Shown here piece by piece: positions 6,130-38,247 of a stretch of 64,000 bases of DNA. The translations under genes were made by a program, and so were the position numbers. The DNA is from Planctomycetota bacterium. Its GTDB lineage: Bacteria; Planctomycetota; SZUA-567; H5-PLA8. The stretch covers positions 14,226 through 78,225 of the forward strand of contig JAHCJK010000003.1 in NCBI GenBank assembly GCA_026184295.1, written 5' to 3'. The notes beneath the pieces are model-generated. The model made no database searches. It saw only the letters and a list, made by a program, of their open reading frames with translations, and had not been told where the DNA came from. How positions within the stretch are numbered: position 1 is the first letter of the stretch; each line of letters starts with the position of its first letter.

Positions 6130-7401
6130 CTACGGGAGCAGCCACAGGCAGGCCATCGCCACCAGCGTGGGCAGGAGGGCGGTGAGGGCCAAGCGCAGCG
6201 GGCTGATGCCGTCGGGCTGGAAGCGTTCCTGCAGGATCGAGAAGCCCGCGGGGTTCGGGGCGTTGGCGATCACGGTCAGGCCGCCGCCGGCCACCGCGCC
6301 GGCCACCAGCGCGTACTTGAAGGCGTCGGTGACGTTGTCCACCTGCGAGCCGAGAAATGTCAGGGCCGCGTTGTCGGTGAAGGCCGTGAGCGCCGTCGCG
6401 CCCAGGAAGAGCGCCGTGGGTTCGAGGGAGCGGATGACCGAGTCGAGCCACCACTTCTGGAAGCCGCCCAGCACGACCAGGCCGGCGAGGAAGAAGCCGA
6501 CGAGCAGGCTCTCGCGCAGCTTGAGCGGTTCCTGCCAGCGCTTGGTGATCGCCGTCAGGCCCAGGAAGTAGAGGAAGAAGCCCAGGAAGATCTTGGGGTG
6601 GTGCGAGGTCAGCACGACCAAGGCGAGGAAGACCAGGTGGGCCGCGATCACCCAGATGGGGATGGGCTGGTCCTTGGGCGCGTTCTCGGGCTCGGACAGG
6701 TACTTCAATTCCTTGCGCAGGATCATCGTGGCCGCGAAGGCGTTGATCACGACCGCCAGCGCCGACTTCCAGCCGAAGTGCACGAGCATGAAGCCGATGT
6801 CCCACTTCCAGGTCCCCGCGACCATCAGCACCGGCGGCGCGGCGAAGGGCGTCATGGTTCCGCCGATGGAGACGTTCACGAACAGCACCGCGAGCGTGAT
6901 GTACATGAAGCGCCCGCTCATCTGGCGGTCGTAGTAGCGGCGCTTCAGGATCATCGCGGTCACCGTCATCGCGGCGGGTTCGGTGATGAAGCTGCCCAGC
7001 AGCGGCCCGACCACGAGGCAGGTCAGGTAGATCGCGATCTCGCGGTGGAACGGGATCAGCTTCGCCAGGCCGAAGATCGAGCCGCGCGCGAAGCGGATCA
7101 CCGGGGCCGTCGCGGCCACGGTCATGATCGCGAAGACGAAGGCGGGCTCGGTGAAGTTCTGGTGGTCCAGGTGCTCGATCGCCTCGTGCCAGCCGTTCAA
7201 AAAAGCGAAGACGATGACCAGGACGCCGGCCCAGAAGCCGAAGACCGCCTCGACTTCGCCCAGCAGGTGGAAGACGCTCGCCCCGACCGAGTCCTCCGGG
7301 AACTTGTGGGAGATGTGCAGGAAGCGGCTGCAAAGGAAGGTGTGGACGATCGCGATGGCAAACAACGACGTCGCGACGATCTCGATGGTCGTGGGTTGCA
7401 T
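6130..7401 (-). CDS. polytopic membrane transporter (ArsB/NhaD-like permease superfamily, family uncertain)
   Basis: The 423-aa product has 10-12 hydrophobic helices. The start is taken at the ATG of MQPTTIEI. No soluble domains are present. Confidence 0.7.
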   Translation of the reverse strand: MQPTTIEIVATSLFAIAIVHTFLCSRFLHISHKFPEDSVGASVFHLLGEVEAVFGFWAGVLVIVFAFLNGWHEAIEHLDHQNFTEPAFVFAIMTVAATAPVIRFARGSIFGLAKLIPFHREIAIYLTCLVVGPLLGSFITEPAAMTVTAMILKRRYYDRQMSGRFMYITLAVLFVNVSIGGTMTPFAAPPVLMVAGTWKWDIGFMLVHFGWKSALAVVINAFAATMILRKELKYLSEPENAPKDQPIPIWVIAAHLVFLALVVLTSHHPKIFLGFFLYFLGLTAITKRWQEPLKLRESLLVGFFLAGLVVLGGFQKWWLDSVIRSLEPTALFLGATALTAFTDNAALTFLGSQVDNVTDAFKYALVAGAVAGGGLTVIANAPNPAGFSILQERFQPDGISPLRLALTALLPTLVAMACLWLLP

Positions 7402-7638
7402 GAGCCTCCGGGTGAGCGCATGACGCTGCCAGATGGCGGCCCGACCATCCACGTGCCTGCATCGCCTTGCGCGACGCACCCTTCAGAGCCCGTCCCTTGC
7501 ATGACCGGCCCGGCCCCCGTGGGGCGGAACCCTGATACCTGAGGCACGCCCGGGCTGCAAGTCGGGTTTGGCCGGAATCCACGGAAACTCGTGCCAGCGC
7601 TTTACTTCGAGTGCCCATGCCCTTACAAAACAACGCCC

Positions 7639-24492: not shown

Positions 24493-25020
24493 ATGAGCGC
24501 GCAGCGGGACGAGCGGTTCGCCGAGATGCTGGAGACGACGCAGGCGCACGTCCGCGCGTACATCGCGGGCCTGGGCGTGCCGCCGGTGGACGTGGACGAC
24601 CTTGCGCAGGAGGTGTACCTGGAAGTCTACCGCAACATGGAGGCCATCCCCGCGGACCTGGAACCGATCCGCTGGCTGAAGGGCATCGCGCGCAACCTCT
24701 GCATGAACCACTTCCGGCGCGAGACGCGCCGCAAGCTGAAGACCCAGTTGGAGTCGTTGATCGAACACCTGGACCGCACGCCCGCGACCTTCGACGACGT
24801 GGAAGCGATGCAGGAAGCGCTGCGCGCGCTGGACGGCTGCATGGAACAGCTTTCGGAGAAGAACCGCGAGATGATCCGGATGCGCTACCGCGACGGCAGG
24901 ACGTCCGAATCGATCGCCGAAGCCTTTGCCACCACCGCGGAGGCCGTGCGCATCACGCTCTTCCGGCTGCGCGGCAAACTGAAGGAATGCGTCACGCGGC
25001 GCCTGGAGCCCCACGGATGA
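24493..25020 (+). CDS. ECF RNA polymerase sigma factor (sigma-70 family)
   Basis: Region 2 'DLAQEVYLEVYRN' and region 4 'MIRMRYRDGRTSESIAEAFATTAEAVRITLFRLR' are present. The stop overlaps the next gene's start (ATGA). Confidence 0.85.
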   Translation: MSAQRDERFAEMLETTQAHVRAYIAGLGVPPVDVDDLAQEVYLEVYRNMEAIPADLEPIRWLKGIARNLCMNHFRRETRRKLKTQLESLIEHLDRTPATFDDVEAMQEALRALDGCMEQLSEKNREMIRMRYRDGRTSESIAEAFATTAEAVRITLFRLRGKLKECVTRRLEPHG

Positions 25021-25433
25021 GCGTGAGCGACGGCCTGCTCGCGCGGTTTCTGGAAGACCGCGAGAGCCTGAGCGAGACGGAATTCGACGCGCTGCTGGCG
25101 GCGCTGAAGGCCGACGCGGCGCTCTCGAAGGCCCTCAAGGACCTGCTCGTCATTGACGGGCTCTGCGCGCAGACGCTGGCGCCCGACCGCCGCGGCTTCA
25201 AGGCGCAGGTGGCCCAGCGCCTGCGCGACCTGGAACGCGGCCGCGCGCTCGAAGCCGGCGACGTGGTCAAACGCTTTCACGCCCGCCCCGCGCCGCGCCG
25301 GCTGGCCCGCTGGGGCGCGCTGGCCGCCGCGGCCTGCGCGGTGTCGCCACGCTCTGGCTGGTCAGTGCAGCCTTCGTCGCCGCTCGACGAACGCGCCGCG
25401 CGCCCGATCGTCCGGCAACAACGCCGGGCGTGA
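25017..25433 (+). CDS. anti-sigma factor N-terminal segment (sigma-binding plus TM)
   Basis: It is translationally coupled to the sigma factor and contains a hydrophobic segment WGALAAAACAV. It may be one gene with the following FecR ORF through a frameshift or an overlapping GTG start. Confidence 0.5.
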   Translation: MSVSDGLLARFLEDRESLSETEFDALLAALKADAALSKALKDLLVIDGLCAQTLAPDRRGFKAQVAQRLRDLERGRALEAGDVVKRFHARPAPRRLARWGALAAAACAVSPRSGWSVQPSSPLDERAARPIVRQQRRA

Positions 25434-26404
25434 CGCTCCGGCGCGCGGGCTCCGAACTGCCCGCGGGTTCCGCCGCGCCCGTGCTGAGCGGCGACACGAT
25501 CGTGAATCCCACCGAATCCCCCGCGGAGCTTGCGCTGCACGGGGAGGACTCGCGCATCGCGCTCAAGCCCGACTCGAGCCTGACGCTGACCCGCGCCGAG
25601 GACGGCGCGCGCGTGGAACTGCTGCGCGGCGCGCTGCACGCCCGCCTGGCTCCGCAGGACCCGCGCCGCCCGGTGCGCTTCGTCACGCCCTACGGCGAAG
25701 CGCAGGTGATCGGCACCGAACTGAACCTGGAACTTCGCGCCGGCGACGCGCGCCTGGAAGTGCGGCACGGCCTCGTGCGCGTGACCCGCAAGGAGGACGG
25801 CGAGACCATCGTCGTCGCGGCCGGCCAGGCGGCGAACGTCGGGCCCGGGCGCGAACTCGTCGCGCTGGCCATCGCCGGGCCCGCGCCGGGCGAGGCGGAG
25901 CCTTCCACGGAAGGCGTCCCGCCGGGCTACACGGCTTCGCCCTGGCGTTCGATCTTCGACGGCCGGACGCTGAACGGCTGGCAGCAGGACAAAGGCCGCT
26001 GGATCGTCGAGGACGGCGCGCTGGTCGCGACGACCGAGCAGAGCCTCGAACAGGCCGCGCTGATGCATGCGGAGGACTTCGCCGACTTCGAGCTGCGCTT
26101 CTCGTATTTCGTGGAAGGCAATGCCTATCTGGAATTCCGCGACCGCGTCTCGGAGCTGGGCAGTTTCCAGTATTCGGCGCGGGAGAAGAATCACACGAAG
26201 TGGCGCGCCTGCCGCATCCGCATCGCGGGCCGCGCCGGCGCCGCGGAGATCGACGGGAAAACCGTGCCGTACGAAGCCGCCGGCGACATCTCGCAGCCCG
26301 GGAAGATCCGCTTTTACGTCCAGAACCGGGGGACCGGCATCGTGACGCGCCTGCGGGTGAAGGACGTGGAGGTGCGCACGCTCAGCCGCAGGGCGGAAGA
26401 GTAG
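25430..26404 (+). CDS. FecR-domain protein with C-terminal LamG-like DUF1080 (3-keto-disaccharide hydrolase-like) domain
   Basis: A FecR-like beta-region (VRFVTPYGEAQVIGTELNLEL) is followed by the DUF1080-like IFDGRTLNGWQQ...GRWIVEDGAL. The GTG start overlaps the upstream stop. Confidence 0.7.
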   Translation: MTLRRAGSELPAGSAAPVLSGDTIVNPTESPAELALHGEDSRIALKPDSSLTLTRAEDGARVELLRGALHARLAPQDPRRPVRFVTPYGEAQVIGTELNLELRAGDARLEVRHGLVRVTRKEDGETIVVAAGQAANVGPGRELVALAIAGPAPGEAEPSTEGVPPGYTASPWRSIFDGRTLNGWQQDKGRWIVEDGALVATTEQSLEQAALMHAEDFADFELRFSYFVEGNAYLEFRDRVSELGSFQYSAREKNHTKWRACRIRIAGRAGAAEIDGKTVPYEAAGDISQPGKIRFYVQNRGTGIVTRLRVKDVEVRTLSRRAEE

Positions 26405-26406
26405 CG

Positions 26407-26856
26407 CTATGCGCCCGGCGGCGTCCGCGGCGGCGGTTCGTTCAGCACCATCCAGTAGACCTGCAAATGCCCCACCGCCTGGACGAACTCGCTGAAGTTC
26501 ACCGGCTTCTGAATGTAACTGTTCGCGCCCTGGTCGTACCCCAACTGCAAGTCTTCCTGCTCCTTGCTGGACGTCAGGATCACGACGGAGACCAGGCGCG
26601 TGCGCGGGTCGGCCCGGATGCGCCGCAGCACCTCATGCCCGTCGATCCGGGGGAGGTGCAGGTCGAGCAGGATCAGGGTCGGCAGCGCATGCTCCGACTG
26701 CGCGTACTCGCCCTGGTGGAAAAGGTAGTCCAGCGCCTCCTGGCCGTCGCGGACGACCACCACTTTGTTGGTGACCTTGCTTTTCGAGAGCGCGCGCAGG
26801 GTCAGCAGCTCGTCGTCGGGGTTGTCCTCCACCAGGAGGATGGTTTTGTCCGTCAT
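26407..26856 (-). CDS. response regulator receiver protein (CheY-like, single domain)
   Basis: LLVEDNPDD, the phospho-acceptor Asp in LILLDLHLP and a conserved Lys region (IQKP) are present. The start overlaps the kinase stop. Confidence 0.85.
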   Translation of the reverse strand: MTDKTILLVEDNPDDELLTLRALSKSKVTNKVVVVRDGQEALDYLFHQGEYAQSEHALPTLILLDLHLPRIDGHEVLRRIRADPRTRLVSVVILTSSKEQEDLQLGYDQGANSYIQKPVNFSEFVQAVGHLQVYWMVLNEPPPRTPPGA

Positions 26857-27992
26857 GACGGGTTCTCCTGCCGAGCGAAGGTGAAATAGAACGTCGCGCC
26901 CTGGCCGACGGCGGATTCGGCCCAGATTTTTCCGCCGTGCCGCAGCACGATCCGCTGCACGGTGGCCAGGCCCACGCCGGTGCCGGGAAACTCGCTCTCG
27001 CGGTGGAGCCGGTGGAAGACCGAGAAGAGTTTCGTCGCGTGGGCCATGTCGAAGCCCGCGCCGTTGTCGCGCACGAAAAAGGCGTGGTCGCCGTCGATCT
27101 GCGCCTGGCCGAACTCGATGCGCGCGTCCCCGCGCTTGCCCGTGAACTTCCACGCGTTGCCCAGCAGATTGTCGAGCACGATGCGGATCAGCCCCGGATC
27201 CCCGAACGCGGGCAGCGGCGCGGCCATGACGAGTTCCACCTTCCGGCCGGGCTGCTGCTGCTGCAGGTCGCCGAAAATCTCCGCCGCCACCGGGCGCATG
27301 TCCACCTGCGTGGGCCGCAGGGCGCTGCGGGTGACGCGCGAGAGGTTCAGCATGTCGTCCAGGAGGTGCCCCATGCGCCGGGTCGCGCCGCATACGCGGT
27401 CCAGGTAGCCCTTCCCGGTATCGTCGAGGCTGCCGGAATAGTCTTCGAGCAGCACCTGGCTGAAACCGTGAATGCTGCGGAGCGGCGCGCGCAGGTCGTG
27501 CGCCACCGAATAGGAGAACGACTCGAGTTCCTTGTTGGCCTCTTCCAGGTCGCGGGTGCGCTCCTTCACGCGCTGTTCCAACTGGTTGCGCGCCTCTTCC
27601 AGGGCCTCGTCGCGCGCCTGAATCTGCGCGAGCATCTCGTTGAATTTTTCCACCAGCAGCCCGGTCTCGTCGCCGCCGTGCTTGCGCGCGCGCAGCGAGT
27701 AATCCTTCTTTTCCGAGACCTGCCGCGCGATCTCGGCGAGTTCCACCAGCGGCGCCGAAAACGGCTTTTGCAGGAGCGACGAGAGCACCAGCGCCAGCAG
27801 CGCCATCAGCGCCACCACGCCCGCGAAGGTCCACGCGTACGCGGCGGTCCAGTCGCGCAACTGGGAATAGTCGGAGCGCACGTAAATCGTCCCGATGCGT
27901 TCGCCTTTCAAAAGCACGGGGCCGTAGTACTCCAGGTGCCCGCCCTTCGCGATGCCGTCCTCGCGCGGCTTCCCGGGCGCGCCCTCGGCCAC
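26853..27992 (-). CDS. sensor histidine kinase (TM2-HAMP-DHp-CA core)
   Basis: The H-box is SYSVAHDLRAPL. N, G1 and G2 boxes are present (LGNAWKF, DNGAGF, GTGVGL). HAMP and a TM helix lie upstream. Confidence 0.85.
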   Translation of the reverse strand: MAEGAPGKPREDGIAKGGHLEYYGPVLLKGERIGTIYVRSDYSQLRDWTAAYAWTFAGVVALMALLALVLSSLLQKPFSAPLVELAEIARQVSEKKDYSLRARKHGGDETGLLVEKFNEMLAQIQARDEALEEARNQLEQRVKERTRDLEEANKELESFSYSVAHDLRAPLRSIHGFSQVLLEDYSGSLDDTGKGYLDRVCGATRRMGHLLDDMLNLSRVTRSALRPTQVDMRPVAAEIFGDLQQQQPGRKVELVMAAPLPAFGDPGLIRIVLDNLLGNAWKFTGKRGDARIEFGQAQIDGDHAFFVRDNGAGFDMAHATKLFSVFHRLHRESEFPGTGVGLATVQRIVLRHGGKIWAESAVGQGATFYFTFARQENPS

Positions 27993-28044
27993 CCCCGGCG
28001 CACGTGTAGGACGCGACAGAGCTTTCCGTCCGGCTGTAAAGGGG

Positions 28045-28305
28045 TCAGGCGGCTTCCACCGAGGGCTTTTCGGAAAAGGAGGAGAGCGTGTCCTCGGCCG
28101 CCCGCGCGTCGTCGAAGGTGAGCGCCGCGGTGGTGTTCATCGCGGCCGCGCGCGCCAGCGAGCCCAGGTCGCGTTCCATCAGCTCTTCCATCGCGTCGTG
28201 TTCATAGCCGAACAGGATCAACCCGGAGACCAGGATGGCCGTGACGCTGACCGCCATGATCGTCGTGACCAGTTTCCATTTGATGGAGAGGTCGCGCAGG
28301 CGCAT
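28045..28305 (-). CDS. N-terminal fragment of the same histidine kinase (TM1 plus start of the sensor domain), in a different frame
   Basis: It begins MRLRDLSIKWKLVTTIMAVSVTAILVSGLILF (TM1). The frame ends 50 bp before the kinase-core ORF, and a +1 shift joins the two. Confidence 0.4.
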   Translation of the reverse strand: MRLRDLSIKWKLVTTIMAVSVTAILVSGLILFGYEHDAMEELMERDLGSLARAAAMNTTAALTFDDARAAEDTLSSFSEKPSVEAA

Positions 28306-28307
28306 CG

Positions 28308-28844
28308 TCACTCGCCTTTCGCATTCACGATCTTCGCAAGGCGCAGCAGTTGCGCGGCGATCTTCAGGCCCGACTTCTTCGCCGCGTCCGGGTTGATGTC
28401 GAAGGCGACCTTCTGATCGCGCAGCACGAACCGCACCATGCCGCCGGCCTCGATGAAGGCGTCCTGTTCGCCCACGGTCAGCGTCGGCGTGCCCGCCAGC
28501 GCCTTCATGGCCTTCTCGAGCGACTCGCCTTTCAAGCCGACGAAAAGCACGTGCGCCTCGCGCGCTTCCGAAGCGTCCTTGTATTTCCGGACGATGACCC
28601 GGTGCCCGTCCACCTCGCGGTCCGCGGCGGTGTTTTCCAGCGCCGGCCCGAACGGATTGTCGCCCAGCGTGCCGAGCACCAGGGGCGTCTTCTTGTCCGG
28701 AAACGCGGCCTTGGGCCATTCGACGAATTTGGCGAAATTGAGCATGCAGCCGGCCTTGACCCGGTACTCGAGCGAGTCTTCGGCGCGGGCGAACGGGCTG
28801 GCGCTCAGCGCGAACAGCAGAAGGATGCTCGTGACGGCCCGCAT
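28308..28844 (-). CDS. DUF4154 / YfiR-like periplasmic protein
   Basis: Signal peptide MRAVTSILLLFALSASPFARA. The 178-aa product is YfiR-like (EYRVKAGCMLNFAKFVEWP). It sits between the TonB-dependent receptor and the kinase. Confidence 0.8.
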   Translation of the reverse strand: MRAVTSILLLFALSASPFARAEDSLEYRVKAGCMLNFAKFVEWPKAAFPDKKTPLVLGTLGDNPFGPALENTAADREVDGHRVIVRKYKDASEAREAHVLFVGLKGESLEKAMKALAGTPTLTVGEQDAFIEAGGMVRFVLRDQKVAFDINPDAAKKSGLKIAAQLLRLAKIVNAKGE

Positions 28845-28862
28845 GATTTGTTCGGCACGCTC

Positions 28863-30887
28863 CTAAAACTTCATCGTGAACTTTACATACAAGTTGCGCT
28901 CGATCCTCGATCCGCCCGGCCCGTATTGTTCCCGGTCCGGCTGAAGAAAATTCTGGGCGCCGATGCTCAGGTCCAGGTTCTTCGTCGGAGCCCACCCCAG
29001 GCGCGCGTCCAGCCGCGTATAGCTCGGAACCTCCGACGCCTTAAGTTTATCATAAAAATAGACCGCCGCGTCGAATTGCAGATTGTGCGGCAAGTCGATG
29101 AAGGACCGGACGAAGAACTGGTGCTGGGGCGTCAGCCCTTCGGGAAATTCGGCGTCCTTGGCGAAGGCATTGCTGTCCTTGTGCATCAGAATCTTGACGA
29201 ACGAGTACCCCGCCCCGAAGCGGATCGCGTCCGTCGGGTTCCAGTTGGCCGCGAACTCCCCGCCGTAGGTCTCGCCGCGCATGTCCGCCTGCTGGATCAC
29301 CGGCACGGTGATGTGCAGCGGCGCGGGCCGCGGTTCGGGAAAGAACGCGCCCGGCTCGTTCGAACGCAGGTGGTGATACTGGTTGAAGAACCCCGCCGCG
29401 TCGATCGAGAAGCGCTTGTGGAGCTGCGCGCGGTACCCCAGCTCGTACGAGAACTCCGTCTCGGACGGGATGTCCTTGTTCGGGAAGAGCGCCGCGACGA
29501 TCGGCGGCAGGAAGAAGAAAGGCCGCGAGGCCTGCAGGTTCGCGCGCAGGTCGGTCTCCGTCGGCGCGGAGGTGCGCACCGAACGCGAGGCCGACGACCA
29601 CACGGTGTGGCCTTGAGCGGCATGCCAGACCGCCTTCACGCTCGGCTGGAATTCCCAGCCCGTGTAATCGTTGTGCTCCACCTTGGTCCCAACCGTCAGG
29701 TAGAACTTGTCCTTCAGCACCGTCATCTCGTCCTGCACGAACCCGCTCAGCAGGTCCGTGTGGCGGTTCTTGGGCCGGAAGACGACCGAAAAGGTGTCGT
29801 TGAGGTCCTGCTTCACGAAGCGGTAGCCCGCGCCGTAGACGATCTCGTGCCCCTTCAGCTTCAGATGGTGGTTGAAATCCAGGTCGAAGGTGTGCATCCG
29901 CTGGTCCAGCTTCAGTTCTTCGCGGTCGGTCAGGTCGTAATAAAGCTGCAGGGAGGTCTGCGAGGTCTCCGAGAACGTATGCCCCCAGCGGACGAGCAGG
30001 TCGCCGCCGGCCATGCTGGCGTCCTTGGTGTGCGCGACCATGTACGGCGGCGCCAACTGCGCGAGCACCTGCTTTTCCTCGTGCATGCCCTTGTAGTAGT
30101 CGCCTGAGACGATTACCGCGTCCTTGCTCGACGCCTTGATGTCGAAGCGCACGCCGCCGCGCGCGACGTCCCAGCCGTCGTGCGCGGCCAGCCGGTCGCC
30201 CGCGCGGGTCAGTTCGTCGCGCTTCGAATACTTCACGAAAAAGCGGTACGTGGCCGCCTCGCCGATCTTGCCCCCGTAACGTACCGAATCGATGGTCGTC
30301 TCCTGCGTGCCGGCCGAGACCGCCGCCAGGACGCCCTGCGTGTCCTTCGAGTGCTTGGTGATGATGTTGATCACGCCGTTCACCGCGTTCGCGCCCCAGA
30401 CGGTCGCCCCGGGCCCGCGGATCACTTCGATGCGCTCGATGTCCTCGAGCATCGTGTCCTGCACGTCCCAGTAGACGCCGGCGTAAAGCGGCGAATAAAC
30501 GCTGCGCCCGTCGATCAGCACCAGCAGCTTGTTCGCCAGCCCGCTCTGAAAACCCCGGATGCTGATCGCATACGTGTGCGCGTCGATCTGCGCGACGTTC
30601 ACGCCCGGAGCCAGCCGCAGCGCGTCCGCGATGCTGGTAACGCCCGCGCGGCGGATGTCTTCGCCCGTGATCACGGTCACGGCGGACGCCGTGTCCGAGA
30701 TGCGTTCTTCCTTTTTCGAGACGGAGGTGACCTTGATGTTCAGGAGTTCCTCGATGGAGAGGTCCCCGAGGTCGCGCGAATCCGCGCGCGGTTTCTCCTC
30801 GACCAGCCTTGCTTCTTCGGCCTGCAGCGCGGCCGAGATCGAGCAGAGTCCAAGCAGAACCGTCCACCACCGAGCCGGCAATCCCAT
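28863..30887 (-). CDS. TonB-dependent outer-membrane receptor
   Basis: It has a signal peptide, a TonB box/plug (ASAVTVITGEDIRRAG), a beta-barrel and a C-terminal aromatic residue (…VKFTMKF). No N-terminal signalling extension is present. Confidence 0.9.
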   Translation of the reverse strand: MGLPARWWTVLLGLCSISAALQAEEARLVEEKPRADSRDLGDLSIEELLNIKVTSVSKKEERISDTASAVTVITGEDIRRAGVTSIADALRLAPGVNVAQIDAHTYAISIRGFQSGLANKLLVLIDGRSVYSPLYAGVYWDVQDTMLEDIERIEVIRGPGATVWGANAVNGVINIITKHSKDTQGVLAAVSAGTQETTIDSVRYGGKIGEAATYRFFVKYSKRDELTRAGDRLAAHDGWDVARGGVRFDIKASSKDAVIVSGDYYKGMHEEKQVLAQLAPPYMVAHTKDASMAGGDLLVRWGHTFSETSQTSLQLYYDLTDREELKLDQRMHTFDLDFNHHLKLKGHEIVYGAGYRFVKQDLNDTFSVVFRPKNRHTDLLSGFVQDEMTVLKDKFYLTVGTKVEHNDYTGWEFQPSVKAVWHAAQGHTVWSSASRSVRTSAPTETDLRANLQASRPFFFLPPIVAALFPNKDIPSETEFSYELGYRAQLHKRFSIDAAGFFNQYHHLRSNEPGAFFPEPRPAPLHITVPVIQQADMRGETYGGEFAANWNPTDAIRFGAGYSFVKILMHKDSNAFAKDAEFPEGLTPQHQFFVRSFIDLPHNLQFDAAVYFYDKLKASEVPSYTRLDARLGWAPTKNLDLSIGAQNFLQPDREQYGPGGSRIERNLYVKFTMKF

Positions 30888-31132
30888 ACCGCGGCCTCCG
30901 TCACAAGGAACAGTACGTATTGGAGTTAAATATCCAAAGGAATCTTACTTTACGGGTTGGAAGGCGACAATTCAAATTCGGCTCGCCTTTTCGGCCCGTA
31001 ACTGTTTCAAAAATTTCAACTTAGGTGTCCGAGGTCAAAGGTGCACCTTGTACAACTTCCGGGTGTTTGCTATCCTTCTATTGTCTACTTATGCCCCTTT
31101 GCACCCACGCTGTCTGCGATACAGGAGCACGC

Positions 31133-32931: not shown

Positions 32932-33004
32932 AGCCACCTCCCGGGATCGAACCGGGGACCTACGGTTTACAAAACCGTTGCTCTACCGGCTGAGCTAAGG
33001 TGGC
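32932..33004 (-). tRNA. tRNA-Thr (anticodon TGT)
   Basis: The reverse complement folds as a cloverleaf: acceptor GCCACCT/AGGTGGC, D-arm GCTCAGCCGGTAGAGC, anticodon stem ACGGT/ACCGT with loop TTTGTAA (U33, A37, anticodon UGU), and T-arm GGTTCGATCC. CCA is not encoded. Confidence 0.8.
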
Positions 33005-33171: not shown

Positions 33172-36100
33172 TTACGGCGCTTTGGCGGTGGTGATCGCCA
33201 GGACCACGGGGACGCCGCGGCGCTGTTCGCCGTACACGACATCGATGCTCTTGATCTCGACATCGGGGCGCGGGTTGTTCCACTGCATCGAGTACGCCAC
33301 GGCGTGCTGGTCGGTGCCCTCGTACGGCGCGGTCCAGCCCAGTTGCGCGCCGGGCAGCGCGGCGGGCGTCTTCTGCCGGTAGTCGTGAATATCGATCTCG
33401 GCGTAGACGGGCACGCCGGCGGTCTGGCCGTCGGCATAGGTAACGACGTAGCGCAGCATCTCGTACTTCTTGTCTTCCTTCAGGTCCTTGGGATTGCGGC
33501 GCTGGTCCAGCCGCGCGGTGTGCAGGAAGAAGACCGCGTCGGCCTTGCGGCCCACGGGAATGTCCTTCACTTCTTCCGGCGGCTTGTTGGGGATGTTCTT
33601 GCCGCCGAGCATGATCACCGTCGGCACCTGCGACGTGGCGAAGTCGTAGACCTGGTAGGTCACGCCCGCGAACTTCTGCCGGCCGGTGGGCAGATCCTTG
33701 AACGTGAAGCGCTTGTCGCCGAACCAGCCGCGGTCGTCGCGGTACTGCGTGCCGAACTTCGAGATGTCCACGGGCTGGCAGTCCAGGTTCGAACCGGCGA
33801 CGACGGTCTTCGCGCCGCCGAAGGGCGCCTGCAGGTTGCGCAGGAGCGCCGCGAGGATGTTGCGCTTCTTGGCCGCGTTTTCCGGGACGGCCTCGCGTTC
33901 GAGGAAGGCGACGTTGCAGAGCAGGATGCCGCCGCTGCCCTTCGCGTAGGAAAGCATCCCGCCGATGTTCAGCAGCGGCTTCACGCGCGCGTAGAAATCG
34001 TCCGAACGCTTCGCCTTGATGCGCAGGTTGTCCACGCCGAGCACTTCGGCGCGGCCGACCTTGGCCCATTCGGCCAGGTTCAGCGTCAGCGCCTTGCCTT
34101 TGCGCGCGGGTTCTACCGCGAAGGTCTGCGGTTCGTTGTTGGGCTCGGTCTTGAAGGACACGGCGTGTTCGCGGTCGCCGTCGAAGATCAGGTCCAGCTT
34201 CGTGACGATGTGGTACATCGCGTTGCCGGTCCATTCGATCTCGACGATCTCTTCTTCCACGGGCCACGTGAGCGTGAATTCGTGCGGCGAGCCCTTGCCG
34301 AGGGGGATGGAGAAGATGTACTTCCAACTGTCGGCCGAGACGAACCCGTTGACCATGTTCAGCGGGTTGTGGTCGTTCTCCGGGTTTTCCTCGTCGTACT
34401 TGAAATACTTCGGATCGGGAAAGGCCGCGAAGGGCGCGATGTCGTCGTAGTCGAGGACGTAGGAAAACTCGTCGGAGGCCAGGTAGACGTCGCGCGTCCA
34501 TGTATTGATGCGCTTGCCGGACTGCATCACGATGTCGGCGGTCGTCAGGCCCGCGGTGAGCGGGTGCTTGGAGGCCGGGAAGGTGACGCGTTCCATCCGG
34601 AACGGACGGATCAGGTGGTTGACGCCGACGACCTTGTTGTAGTCCGCCAGGCTTTCGGGCGTGAGGCCGTTCAGGACGATCCAGCCGCCGCCGGCACAGT
34701 AGGCATCCACCTTGGCCTGGTTTTCGGCGAGCGTCTTAAGATTCGCGGGCGAGGCGTTCAGCACCGCGATCTTGTTTTCGCCGAGGACGTCCAGCGGCCC
34801 GGGCGCTTCGGTGAACTTCATGCCGATGCCCTTGAGCGCCGCCGCGAAATCGGGCGCGTTCTGCACGCAGGCCGCGACGGAACGCACCTGCAGCTTGTAA
34901 CCGGCCGCGTATTCGAGCAGGTTCAGGAAAAGTTTGCGCGGGACGGCGCCGCCTGGGAGTTTTTCGCCCACCGTCAGTTGCGTGACGCAGAGCAGCCCCT
35001 CGCCCACGGGCATTTCCAGCAACGCGGTGTTCTGGAGCTTCTGGTGGCACTGCACGAGCGACTTGCCGCCGTGCGAGGGTTTGCCGTACGCATTGCGGTA
35101 GACGATGTGCTCCGGGCCCCAGGTGTAAAAGTCCTTCTGATCAAGCCCGCGCGCGACCGGATGGTTGAGGTCTTCGAGGAAGGCGGTGCGGCCTTCGTTC
35201 TGTTCCACGTCCACGTCGGCGGGCAGCGCCAGGTAGCGCAGCGGATGCTGTTGTTCGAGCACCACGACGCGCCGGCCGGCTACGGCCCAGCCCTGCAGCG
35301 CGCTGGATGCGCAATCGATCGGCGTCAGCGCGTCCTTGCCGACGACCAGTACCTGCCCGGCATCGGGAAGGGACTTCAGATCCGTGAGCGCCGTAAAGGG
35401 CTGCTTGAGGTCCTTGAGGAAGGCCGCGGCGTTGCCCTGCGGGTCGTAGACGAGCAGGTCCTTTTCGCCCAGCTTGGCGAGCGCAGGGTAATCCGCGAGC
35501 TTGGCCTCGGGCAGCACCGAGACCGCCTTCACGTCGCGGAAGACTTCCTGGCCCTTCACCTTCAGCGTCAGGGTCCAGGTGCCTTCGGTGCGCTTCGCGA
35601 CCTCGGGCATCGCCAGTTCCACCGCGAACGCTTCGCTGCCGCCCGGCGCGATCTTGAAGGTCTTCGCTTCGCCTTCGGTCTTCGTGCCGCCGGCGTCCAG
35701 GGTCCAACGGAACTCGATGGGTTCGTCGAAGCGCGTGTCGTTGAAGACCTTCATCGAGCGCGCAATCTTCTTGCCCGACGTGAACGTCCAGTCCCACTGC
35801 CGGCAGAAGACCGCGACGGGCGCGTTGGAATTGTACTGGTCGAGCGCCTCGTGCTGGCCCATCCAGAAGTGCCACGCGCCGTAGCCCGCCCAGCGGTAGC
35901 CCTCCGTCAGATTTCGGTAGATGATGCCGGCTGCTCGGCGCGACTGCGCCTTGCCCTGGAAGGTTTCTTCGCCGCCGAAATAGGAGTATTCGAACGGGTT
36001 GATGCCGTTCGCGAAGTAGTCTTCGCCGATAAAGCGCGGGCGCTTGAGGTCCCAGTGCCAGCGGCCGCGGCCGCCGCCGTCTTCGTGGTCTTCGTACGCG

Positions 36101-38247
36101 AGATCGGGGTAGTTCCCGAAGCCCGAGCGCCCGCCGAAGACGTAGTGGTCGCCGTGCACCGGCAGGGTGTTGGCCTTCGTCGCGCCGCCGCCGTCCACCA
36201 TGGTAAAGCGCGTGGGATCGGCCTTCAGGACCGCCTCGCTGGTCTTCGTGATCTCGGCTTCGAAGTGGTCCATCAGGCCGCCGTACAGGTTGATGCAGTT
36301 GATGTAGAGGTACTCGTTCTCGATCGACCAGACCATCACCGAGGGATGGTTGCGTTCGCCCAGCACGCGCGCGACCTGCTGGTCGCGCCAGTTGCGCATC
36401 AGGTCCATCTTGATCGGCGATTCTTTCGCCAGGTCGGGATCTTTCTCGATGGCCATGTAGCCGATGGCCTCGCCGTCCAGCGTGCCGCTGCGCCGCACCA
36501 CGACGCCTTCGCGGTCGAAGAAGTCCAGCGCGGCTTCGGGCGCGAGCCCCTGCCAGCGCGTGCCCCAGAAGCGCATCACCCGCTGGTTGGATTTGCGGTA
36601 GAACGCGATCCAGTCCTCGGGGCTCTTGGCGGTAAAGCAATCGGCCCAGCCGTGCCAGACGAGGCCGTTGAGCTTGAAGTCCTTCCCTTCGCTCGTCCAT
36701 TCGCGGAAGCCGAACGTGGTCTCCGAAATGTCCGCGACCTTGCCGCCGACCTTGACCGTCGCGCGCAGCTTGTACAGGTTCGGTTCGTCGGGCCACCAGA
36801 GCTTCGGGTTCTCCCAGGGCTCGGTAAGCGTAAGGGTCTGACTTGCTTCGGCGGTCTCAAACGCTTTCGCCGCGAAGGTCTTCTCGACCGCGCCGGTCTT
36901 TGCATTCACGGCCTCGCAGACGATCTCGCCCGCGGCCTTGGCGCCCTCCGATCCTTTTAAGGTGATTTCGAGCGCGATCTGCTTTTTCGCCACGGAGGTA
37001 TTGGGGAAAACATCGTCGGCGTAGACCGGGCCGGCGGCGGTGAAGACCGGAGCGAGCAGCATGCCGGACTGGAAGTGGTGCCAGATGGGATAGGCGAGTT
37101 CCTGGAATCCGCCTTCGGTCCGGTCGAGCGGGATGTTGAACTTCTTGCGCAGCTTCATCGGATCGTTCGGGTTCGTGGAATACCCGTACCACGCGTCGCG
37201 CATGCCGACCCAGACCTCGTTCGCTTGCCCGGCCTTGACGCCTTTGGTCACGTCGATGCGGAAGCGCGCGAACGGATTCTTGTTGAAGCCGCAGTAGACG
37301 CCGTTCACGTAGACCGTGGTGTTGAGGTTGTTCTCGGGGAATTCGAGATAAAAGGAGCGCCCCGCGGCTTCGGCGGGCACGTTTACCTTCGTGCGGTACC
37401 AGAAGCGGTGGCAGAAGACGAGATCGGGGCGGAGCTTGTTCTTGTCGCCGGGGACCTGGATGGCCGACCAGAACGGATGCTTGGGGAACTCCTGGATCGG
37501 CTGCGCGACGTCCGGACCCGGCAGGTCCTCGTCGAAACGGCAGATTTCCCACGCACCGCTCAGTTCCACCGACGAACGCAGGCCTTCGCCTTTGGGCGCG
37601 GGCAGCGCGAAGACGTTCGCGGCGGCCTTGCGGTCGGCTTCGGTCGCGGCGTCTTCGCCGGGCTTACGCAGACCGTTCGGATAAAACGGACCGTCGGAAA
37701 TGCACACGGCGTCGAGCGCGAAGAGGATACGCGCGGTCTTCTTCTTGTCGTCCTGCGTCTTGAGCAGCCGGAACTCGAGCTTGTGGTCGCCCGCGGCGAG
37801 CTTTTCCATTCCCAGTTTCAGCCAGGCGACCTCGCACCAGACGTCCACTTCGTACAGGTCGGTGGTCAGGACATCGGGGTCCACGCGCTTCCAGGGCTGC
37901 GCGTCGATGCGCCATTCGAACGGCGAACGGACGAACTCGAAGCCGATGCGCGCCCAGATTTCCTTCTCGCCGTCCTTAGCGGCCTTGAACGCGTAGGCCA
38001 GCAGCGCGCCGTCGTCCGGCAGCTTCTCCACTTCCTCGGGCGGCAGGCTGACGTGCGCCCAGGATTCGCCCGAGAGAAACTCCTTCTTGCCCCAGCCGCC
38101 CAGCTTGGGCGACACCGTGGACGACGCGGGCTGTTCGCCTTCGATCCACACAAAGCCCGGCGCGTCTTCCGCGCTCAGGATGGAATGCGTCAGAACCGCC
38201 GTGGCGGCAACTACAGCCAGCCATGCCTTTGCATGTAGTAGGCGCAT
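33172..38247 (-). CDS. giant secreted glycoside hydrolase, GH2-like catalytic module with N-terminal CBM-like domain and a ~900-aa C-terminal extension (1691 aa)
   Basis: Signal peptide MRLLHAKAWLAVVAATAVLTHS. The GH2 acid/base region is NHPSVMVWSIENE. The ORF is uninterrupted. The N-terminal ~130 aa are shared with the 57136-59790 protein. Confidence 0.85.
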   Translation of the reverse strand: MRLLHAKAWLAVVAATAVLTHSILSAEDAPGFVWIEGEQPASSTVSPKLGGWGKKEFLSGESWAHVSLPPEEVEKLPDDGALLAYAFKAAKDGEKEIWARIGFEFVRSPFEWRIDAQPWKRVDPDVLTTDLYEVDVWCEVAWLKLGMEKLAAGDHKLEFRLLKTQDDKKKTARILFALDAVCISDGPFYPNGLRKPGEDAATEADRKAAANVFALPAPKGEGLRSSVELSGAWEICRFDEDLPGPDVAQPIQEFPKHPFWSAIQVPGDKNKLRPDLVFCHRFWYRTKVNVPAEAAGRSFYLEFPENNLNTTVYVNGVYCGFNKNPFARFRIDVTKGVKAGQANEVWVGMRDAWYGYSTNPNDPMKLRKKFNIPLDRTEGGFQELAYPIWHHFQSGMLLAPVFTAAGPVYADDVFPNTSVAKKQIALEITLKGSEGAKAAGEIVCEAVNAKTGAVEKTFAAKAFETAEASQTLTLTEPWENPKLWWPDEPNLYKLRATVKVGGKVADISETTFGFREWTSEGKDFKLNGLVWHGWADCFTAKSPEDWIAFYRKSNQRVMRFWGTRWQGLAPEAALDFFDREGVVVRRSGTLDGEAIGYMAIEKDPDLAKESPIKMDLMRNWRDQQVARVLGERNHPSVMVWSIENEYLYINCINLYGGLMDHFEAEITKTSEAVLKADPTRFTMVDGGGATKANTLPVHGDHYVFGGRSGFGNYPDLAYEDHEDGGGRGRWHWDLKRPRFIGEDYFANGINPFEYSYFGGEETFQGKAQSRRAAGIIYRNLTEGYRWAGYGAWHFWMGQHEALDQYNSNAPVAVFCRQWDWTFTSGKKIARSMKVFNDTRFDEPIEFRWTLDAGGTKTEGEAKTFKIAPGGSEAFAVELAMPEVAKRTEGTWTLTLKVKGQEVFRDVKAVSVLPEAKLADYPALAKLGEKDLLVYDPQGNAAAFLKDLKQPFTALTDLKSLPDAGQVLVVGKDALTPIDCASSALQGWAVAGRRVVVLEQQHPLRYLALPADVDVEQNEGRTAFLEDLNHPVARGLDQKDFYTWGPEHIVYRNAYGKPSHGGKSLVQCHQKLQNTALLEMPVGEGLLCVTQLTVGEKLPGGAVPRKLFLNLLEYAAGYKLQVRSVAACVQNAPDFAAALKGIGMKFTEAPGPLDVLGENKIAVLNASPANLKTLAENQAKVDAYCAGGGWIVLNGLTPESLADYNKVVGVNHLIRPFRMERVTFPASKHPLTAGLTTADIVMQSGKRINTWTRDVYLASDEFSYVLDYDDIAPFAAFPDPKYFKYDEENPENDHNPLNMVNGFVSADSWKYIFSIPLGKGSPHEFTLTWPVEEEIVEIEWTGNAMYHIVTKLDLIFDGDREHAVSFKTEPNNEPQTFAVEPARKGKALTLNLAEWAKVGRAEVLGVDNLRIKAKRSDDFYARVKPLLNIGGMLSYAKGSGGILLCNVAFLEREAVPENAAKKRNILAALLRNLQAPFGGAKTVVAGSNLDCQPVDISKFGTQYRDDRGWFGDKRFTFKDLPTGRQKFAGVTYQVYDFATSQVPTVIMLGGKNIPNKPPEEVKDIPVGRKADAVFFLHTARLDQRRNPKDLKEDKKYEMLRYVVTYADGQTAGVPVYAEIDIHDYRQKTPAALPGAQLGWTAPYEGTDQHAVAYSMQWNNPRPDVEIKSIDVVYGEQRRGVPVVLAITTAKAP

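Follow-up and report, generated by a model that had tools for sequence, protein, structure and literature searches.

A planctomycete copy of a widespread TonB-dependent receptor, YfiR-like protein and CHASE8 kinase cassette with an interrupted kinase gene: a possible YfiBNR-like relay

The minus strand of a 64,000-nucleotide (nt) stretch of DNA from a Planctomycetota bacterium (GenBank assembly GCA_026184295.1, contig JAHCJK010000003.1, positions 14,226 to 78,225; hereafter the window, with a G+C content of ~65%) carries four reading units of the same direction that span exactly the interval 26407-30887. In the 5′ to 3′ order of that strand they encode a TonB-dependent receptor (TBDR), a YfiR-like protein of the DUF4154 family, a CHASE8-HAMP histidine kinase and a receiver-only response regulator. 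The architecture is not new: it is catalogued, widespread and conserved, and the locus in the window is another copy of it, with a broken kinase gene. By analogy with the YfiBNR system, the cassette can be tentatively read as a relay in which the TBDR would stand in the place of YfiB and a phosphorelay would replace the GGDEF output, a reading that we consider plausible and hold with reserve.

The genes of the cassette are closely packed. The TBDR gene (28863-30887, 674 amino acids, aa) is separated by 18 nt from that of the YfiR-like protein (28308-28844, 178 aa), which is followed after 2 nt by the kinase start codon, an ATG at 28305. The stop codon of the kinase and the start codon of the regulator gene (26407-26856, 149 aa) overlap in a 4-nt ATGA, and the Rcp1-type regulator is here translationally coupled to the kinase. 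A first-pass annotation of the locus had described four tightly packed minus-strand genes with DUF4154 between the TBDR and a two-component pair; the coordinates, spacing and Pfam domains bear this out, except that the kinase is not one intact gene, being interrupted by a TGA codon and a frameshift.

The conservation of this gene order in related genomes, chosen beforehand as a test of the proposed module, is extensive. The intact four-gene operon is found in four planctomycete relatives (L001, L002, L165 and L166). For a broader survey, a DUF4154 profile was run against one genome per GTDB species. Of the first 600 pattern matches, 569 proved to be relatives, and the best 80 were analysed (loci L003-L082). 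According to phmmer, a TBDR gene lies directly beside that of DUF4154 in 72 of these 80 loci, in 63 of them upstream on the same strand and in 9 in divergent orientation. Inspection of the eight exceptions revealed three loci in which the TBDR is fragmented or masked, one with a rearrangement, one at a contig edge and three without a TBDR, which brings the adjacency to ~75 (75-76) of the 79 evaluable loci. A sensor gene follows DUF4154 immediately in 78 of the 80 loci; Pfam searches of 63 sensors identified CHASE8 in all 63, HAMP in 62 and HATPase_c in 57, with 27 hybrid kinases, one GGDEF-EAL protein and one methyl-accepting chemotaxis protein among them. A reciprocal test started from the TBDR and took the 80 metagenome loci that resemble it most, of which 69 had enough downstream sequence to be evaluated: DUF4154 is the next downstream gene in 60, and 50 also have the kinase. 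Two TBDR classes pair with DUF4154, the TOL_0244-like class A and a distantly similar class B that is often divergently transcribed. Judged from the record titles, where a few labels of metagenome-assembled genomes (MAGs) are oddly placed, the cassette is spread over at least eight phyla, with Acidobacteriota, Verrucomicrobiota, Bacteroidota, Planctomycetota, Gemmatimonadota, Nitrospirota, Proteobacteria, Desulfobacteraceae and Polyangia among the titles; a cultured strain, Oleiharenicola lentus, is represented by locus L008. Individual loci show local peculiarities: in L071 (6431-7930) an insertion sequence (IS) element with an rve integrase lies right after DUF4154 in the expected place of the kinase, and in L012 (4709-5854) a putative outer-membrane protein of the Phenol_MetA_deg family is encoded upstream of DUF4154 in place of the TBDR.

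The neighbourhood also has an entry in a curated resource. NCBIfam release 20 (June 2026) holds the consecutive models NF053590 "TOL_0244 family TonB-dependent receptor", NF053591 "TOL_0243 family YfiR-like periplasmic protein" and NF053592 "sensor histidine kinase, YfiR-like protein-associated", alongside a separate model for YfiR, NF053586. The three take their names from loci of the cultured strain Thalassolituus oleivorans MIL-1. From the model names and accession numbers we infer that the curators have already recognised this neighbourhood. The three proteins, their order and their domain make-up are the same in the window, whereas the curated set does not include the Rcp1-like receiver, and the window differs further in its broken kinase and in the score of its TBDR. 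The latter matches NF053590 in one end-to-end stretch (residues 39-674 on positions 1-604 of 604, E 2.1e-190) with 634.4 bits, which is 10.6 bits below the equivalog cutoff of 645, and the YfiR-like protein passes the cutoff of 125 bits for NF053591 with 147.8 bits (residues 26-173 on 1-149 of 150, E 2.2e-43). Our literature search found no study of the cassette and no paper joining DUF4154 and TonB-dependent receptors, and papers naming YfiR and a TonB-dependent receptor together appeared unrelated by their titles and abstracts. The sole experimental datum found comes from T. oleivorans proteomics, in which TOL_0244 is up 7-fold on n-C28 alkane and is interpreted as an uptake receptor (PMC6304351).

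The assignment of the second protein of the cassette to the YfiR fold is supported by sequence and by structure prediction. The DUF4154 domain (PF13689) is matched with an E-value of 7.5e-42, and the protein also matches the sequences of YfiR crystal structures (E ~3e-6). Its AlphaFold2 model has a pLDDT of 90, dropping to ~50 over residues 1-20, and a pTM of 0.83, and the top 15 Foldseek matches of the model in the PDB are all YfiR, with target-normalised TM-scores of 0.73-0.80; next come small substrate-binding proteins and lobes of type I binding proteins, a similarity of YfiR that has been pointed out earlier (PMC4655355). The N-terminus, MRAVTSILLLFALSASPFARA|ED, combines a positive residue (MR), a hydrophobic core (maximum KD10 2.7) and an A-x-A site (ARA21|ED), so the protein is predicted to be exported to the periplasm by a Sec-type signal peptide, as had been supposed in the first-pass annotation; a hydrophobic N-terminus of like kind occurs in 35 of 40 homologues. 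The invariant or nearly invariant positions of the family (K30, F37, W43, L122, T123, F130, G134, G135, I150, A155, L166, L167, L169 and A170) map in the model to α1, the α1-β1 loop, β7, α3 and α4, the elements that form the conserved surface used by YfiR for both YfiB and YfiN (PMC4655355); some of these positions may be core rather than surface residues. The family is very large: the DUF4154 profile retrieves 11,560 clusters at 50% identity with E<=1e-30 and 29,399 with E<=1e-3, and no tested function was found for it. DUF4154 also occurs duplicated, as tandem genes in L067 (5917-7208) and as two or three stretches within single proteins of 340-546 aa (P0241-P0248).

The kinase likewise resembles the inner-membrane partner of YfiR. 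Pfam identifies CHASE8, HAMP, HisKA and HATPase_c domains, and the topology consists of a first transmembrane helix (TM1) at residues ~12-35, a periplasmic part at ~36-150 and a second helix (TM2) at ~151-181, after which the HAMP domain follows; the H-box reads SYSVAHDLRAPL, and the H, N, G1 and G2 boxes are all kept. The DgcN/YfiN model NF007423 matches residues 15-246 of the orthologous kinase in L001 (E 2.8e-30) and also the N-terminus of the window kinase once its frame is repaired (84-90 bits). Since both proteins are homologous to YfiR and YfiN, respectively, and since their genes are nearly obligate neighbours, the YfiR-like protein probably contacts the CHASE8 domain. The DUF4154 fold and the sensor module of the kinase being homologous to their counterparts, the YfiR-YfiN pairing is conserved at the level of both partners, with the outer-membrane partner and the output swapped.

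Following this analogy, the exported YfiR-like protein would bind the periplasmic CHASE8 domain of the kinase and lock it in one signalling state. The TBDR, when ligand-loaded or energised, would stand in for YfiB and capture the YfiR-like protein through a periplasm-exposed element, so that the kinase would be released and could phosphorylate D65 of the receiver-only regulator. The latter might then act through protein contact or by further phosphotransfer, the next proteins in related loci being REC-PAS kinases or REC-GGDEF enzymes. A signalling route from substrate arrival at the outer membrane to the kinase had also been proposed in the first-pass annotation, and its two steps fare differently: homology (NF007423 and the YfiR fold) argues for a coupling of DUF4154 to the kinase, while for the step from the TBDR to DUF4154 the evidence consists of the conserved adjacency. 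That the ligand-loaded receptor captures the YfiR-like protein is accordingly put forward as a tentative possibility, suggested by that adjacency and by indirect arguments.

The receptor itself looks like a complete TBDR. After a signal-peptide-like start at residues ~1-23 comes an N-terminal extension bearing the DLGDLSIEELLNIKVTSVSKKEE motif, the Ton-box region with a Ton-box-like IKVTSVS, then the plug (Pfam Plug, residues 63-172, E 8e-25) and the barrel (TonB_dep_Rec_b-barrel, E 1.7e-30), which runs to a C-terminal Phe. The N-terminal motif, DLxxLSLEELMNIEVTSVSK, lies ahead of the plug (residues 39-62 in the window protein), is kept in 45 relatives and is more conserved within the TBDR clade than the barrel (mean column conservation 0.66 vs 0.50); a related motif is found in the second TBDR class. 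The completeness of the protein is also what would be expected of an ordinary transporter, and the imported ligand could then bind or displace the YfiR-like protein, with its half of a periplasmic-binding-protein fold, and so modulate the CHASE8 kinase, with no need for any contact between the TBDR and the YfiR-like protein. Co-sensing of this kind has parallels in TorT-TorS and LuxP-LuxQ, and in PfeS, which senses enterobactin imported by PfeA. Such import and sensing would also agree with the substrate-binding folds that follow YfiR in the Foldseek search, with the conservation of the TBDR family near equivalog level, suggestive of a conserved ligand, and with the alkane induction of the prototype TOL_0244. 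We nevertheless regard it as rather unlikely and prefer capture, because YfiR is established as a protein that binds other proteins, switching partners through one surface, because the cassette includes neither an inner-membrane transporter nor a DNA-binding transcriptional regulator that would induce the transporter and close an uptake-induction loop, and because two different TBDR classes have been recruited.

A number of observations weigh against a TBDR-driven relay of the YfiBNR kind. Pfam finds no STN signalling domain in the TBDR, and ~40 residues separate its signal peptide from the plug. The conserved N-terminal motif was considered as a docking mark for DUF4154 and rejected, as clade members that have no DUF4154 next to the receptor carry it too, and so do the upstream copies where TBDRs stand in tandem. 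The YfiR-like protein fails the YfiR equivalog model NF053586 (36.6 bits, cutoff 85), and at the positions aligned with the YfiR cysteine pairs Cys71-Cys110 and Cys145-Cys152 it has no cysteines, its single one being C33. About 13% of the related TBDRs (9 of 69) have no DUF4154, three DUF4154-kinase pairs have no TBDR, and in another planctomycete (L163, GCA_027493525.1, 5663-7898) a kinase orthologue (60% identity) and regulator (61%) are accompanied by a truncated DUF4154 of 113 aa and no TBDR; here the cassette has either decayed or been re-wired. Finally, the kinase gene is interrupted in the window. Upstream of the L163 genes, chemotaxis-like and hybrid kinase genes are present.

Part of these observations would be explained if the YfiR-like protein and the CHASE8 kinase formed a self-contained periplasmic or envelope-stress sensor, with the TBDR as mere co-transcribed cargo. 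The DUF4154-CHASE8 pairs found without a TBDR in L012, L018, L041 and L163, the canonical YfiRN pair and the nine TBDRs without DUF4154 fit such an arrangement, but the adjacency of the two genes in ~95% of the DUF4154-centred and 87% of the TBDR-centred loci, across at least eight phyla and with two TBDR classes in two orientations, is hard to explain without functional coupling and makes co-expression on its own very improbable.

The interruption of the kinase gene falls within a lesion zone at 27992-28047, delimited by DNA and protein alignments and frame translations. The N-terminal fragment (28045-28305, 86 aa), recognised by Pfam CHASE8 and tblastn, comprises TM1 together with the N-terminal half of CHASE8 (positions 4-48 of 102, E 4.6e-08) and stops at an in-frame TGA at 28047-28045. 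The C-terminal fragment (26853-27992, 379 aa as annotated), recognised by Pfam and NF053592, is in another frame and comprises the second half of CHASE8, TM2, HAMP, HisKA and HATPase_c; the GenBank annotation covers this piece only (P0121, "HAMP domain-containing protein", identical). A tblastn search with P0122 (482 aa, 69% identity), the intact homologue nearest to it, accordingly gives two high-scoring segment pairs, with residues 1-103 in frame -1 (28305-27994, with the stop inside) and residues 102-479 in frame -2, and no near-identical intact kinase was found elsewhere, the nearest being at 69% identity. DNA alignment with the intact genes of L001 and L002 shows that a 3-nt insertion cuts a conserved Cys/Gly codon (consensus EAAC-LY) and thereby makes the TGA. 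One extra base, a +1 frameshift, lies near 27992-28010; its exact place, near a G5 run at 27996-27992, is uncertain, and MAFFT puts the base ~20 nt downstream of that run.

Repairs of the frame that restore the conserved LY...ASY anchors score 194.1-202.7 bits against NF053592 and 271-282 against a local hidden Markov model (HMM), whereas repair by a single indel yields 177 and 259, respectively; the single-indel repair, 17-25 bits worse by NF053592 and 12-24 by the local HMM, was therefore rejected. Between the lesions a compensated -1/+1 pair is possible, which would give "QPDGKL" against the consensus "DKxGRx", the gain from the pair itself being only ~6.5 bits. The deposited 379-aa protein obtains 109.8 bits with NF053592 over positions 102-222 of 223 and misses the cutoff of 194, which the repaired window kinase reaches and the L001 orthologue passes with 209.2 bits.

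With an extra stop and a frameshift in the kinase reading frame, the relay as deposited is non-functional. We lean towards an assembly error as somewhat more likely than a recent pseudogene, because the lesions are clustered, the open reading frames (ORFs) are otherwise intact, and a second frameshifted gene is close by; the kinase would in that case be an intact protein of ~483 aa. That the lesions are real, and that the cassette copy of this planctomycete has been recently inactivated, has an appreciable but lesser likelihood: the TGA and the frameshift are both present within ~55 nt of the deposited sequence, the L163 locus with its truncated DUF4154 and no TBDR offers a decayed version in another planctomycete, and L071 has its IS element after DUF4154. 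Set against this, the kinase ORF is otherwise intact, with ~70% identity to homologous kinases, the lesions are not scattered, and the anti-sigma/FecR gene 2.6 kb away is likewise frameshifted, in its transmembrane helix, which fits local indel errors of the MAG.

The regulator at the end of the cassette has Response_reg as its sole Pfam domain and all the catalytic residues (E10, D11, D65, T95 and K117). Its matches in the PDB are 5ic5 (E 2.4e-42), 5brj (E 3.9e-37), RcpA 1k68 (E 1e-29) and Rcp1 1i3c (E 1.5e-24), and by sequence it classifies as an Rcp1/RcpA-like single-domain receiver, closest to bacteriophytochrome and Rcp-type receivers; it is 61% identical to the L163 regulator. The earlier description of a stand-alone receiver with no DNA-binding domain thus holds, and among the downstream families listed for related cassettes there is no DNA-binding output domain either. 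An Rcp1-like receiver follows the kinase in about a dozen of the sampled loci (~10-15% of cassettes). More generally, the gene after the kinase encodes a REC protein in 45 of 61 cases, REC-GGDEF in 12 and another kinase in 8-9, and the gene one further on encodes a REC-PAS-GGDEF-EAL protein in seven cassettes. An Rcp1-like single receiver followed by a REC-PAS-HisKA-HATPase gene is found in L037 (8406-9851), L059 (8437-10371), L066 (8466-10526) and L165 (8011-10326), and also in L166; the REC-PAS-kinase is a candidate second-tier partner of the receiver, whereas neither such a gene nor anything further follows in cis in the window, L001 and L002. We infer the output of the system from such loci, which suggest second-tier kinases or cyclic di-GMP (c-di-GMP) enzymes as receiver partners; the c-di-GMP enzymes downstream in related cassettes parallel the output of YfiBNR.

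Among characterised systems, the cassette compares with YfiBNR of Pseudomonas aeruginosa, in which a YfiR-fold periplasmic protein is also encoded beside an inner-membrane sensor of TM-CHASE8-TM-HAMP organisation and an outer-membrane partner; the cassettes related to that of the window often feed c-di-GMP enzymes. AwsXRO of P. fluorescens and HmsCDE of Yersinia are systems of the same kind. In YfiBNR, however, the outer-membrane partner is the OmpA-like lipoprotein YfiB rather than a 22-strand TBDR, and no OmpA-like domain was found in the ten cassette and nearby proteins of the window that were scanned. The output also differs, as a GGDEF domain takes the place of HisKA/HATPase_c (one of 63 related sensors is a GGDEF-EAL protein), the gene order is not that of the window cassette, and YfiR has the cysteine pairs that are missing in the window protein.

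TonB-dependent transducers of the FecA-FecR-FecI type are alike in idea, since there too a TBDR occupied by its ligand would signal to a partner facing the periplasm and, through it, across the inner membrane, but they employ an STN domain and an anti-sigma/ECF sigma pair (extracytoplasmic function, ECF) where the window has a TBDR without STN, a soluble YfiR-like protein and a two-component kinase. In PfeS/PfeR-PfeA and PirS/PirR-PirA of P. aeruginosa, a TBDR gene lies beside genes for a kinase and a regulator responding to the transported ligand. Those pairs differ in that an OmpR-type DNA-binding regulator induces the receptor, with neither a YfiR-like protein nor a CHASE8 sensor. Rcp1, RcpA, RcpB and the bacteriophytochrome regulators (1i3c, 1k68, 5ic5 and 5brj) resemble the window regulator as receiver-only proteins of ~147 aa (E 1e-25 to 2e-42) with the catalytic residues present; their cognate kinase is a phytochrome, whereas the window kinase has a periplasmic CHASE8 sensor and no PHY, GAF or PAS_2 domain according to Pfam.

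If the TBDR does signal through the YfiR-like protein, the YfiBNR principle of a periplasmic repressor shuttled between outer- and inner-membrane partners would reach far beyond proteobacterial c-di-GMP control, and a second TonB-dependent signalling route would exist besides FecA-FecR-FecI, operating with neither an STN domain nor an anti-sigma factor. TOL_0244-type TBDRs might then be, although we advance this with considerable doubt, outer-membrane signal receivers that reach a two-component kinase by way of a soluble YfiR-like protein in hundreds of species of the groups from Acidobacteriota to Proteobacteria named above, with an output mainly to receiver-only and c-di-GMP proteins and not to transcription. 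The window adds one more example, and its deposited 379-aa kinase annotation, being a fragment, serves as a warning.

The cassette is flanked upstream by an AT-richer intergenic region of 137 nt (30888-31024) between the TBDR gene and a divergent DUF6882 gene, which from its position only is presumed to be the site of the operon promoter; a sigma-70 scan gave no consensus promoter match, this region included, and the terminator-like matches fall within genes, so that the scan was uninformative. On the other side, convergent to the cassette, lies an ECF sigma/FecR pair at 24493-26404 on the plus strand. The FecR-type anti-sigma gene (25017-26404), which follows the ECF sigma gene (24493-25020), is split over two frames in its transmembrane helix near 25335-25345, where "RWGALAAAACAV" resumes as "ATLWLVSAAFVAA" in the frame of the 25430 ORF, and its C-terminal part has FecR and 3-keto-disaccharide hydrolase (DUF1080-like) domains. 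A link between this pair and the cassette was considered, as L163 also has such a pair after the regulator, and rejected, the sigma factors being only 29% identical and the FecR parts unrelated; the adjacency looks coincidental.

Elsewhere in the 64-kb window, no further two-component genes were found, and the other long ORFs tile the sequence normally. The sole tRNA of the window, a tRNA-Thr (TGT) at 32932-33004 on the minus strand, lies between a GDSL-lipase-like gene and a 1691-aa ORF (33172-38247). Rfam identifies an nhaA-I RNA, a Na+ riboswitch class, at 7431-7481 on the minus strand (49 bits; gathering score 37), and the match sits at the 5′ end of a minus-strand ORF at 6130-7479.

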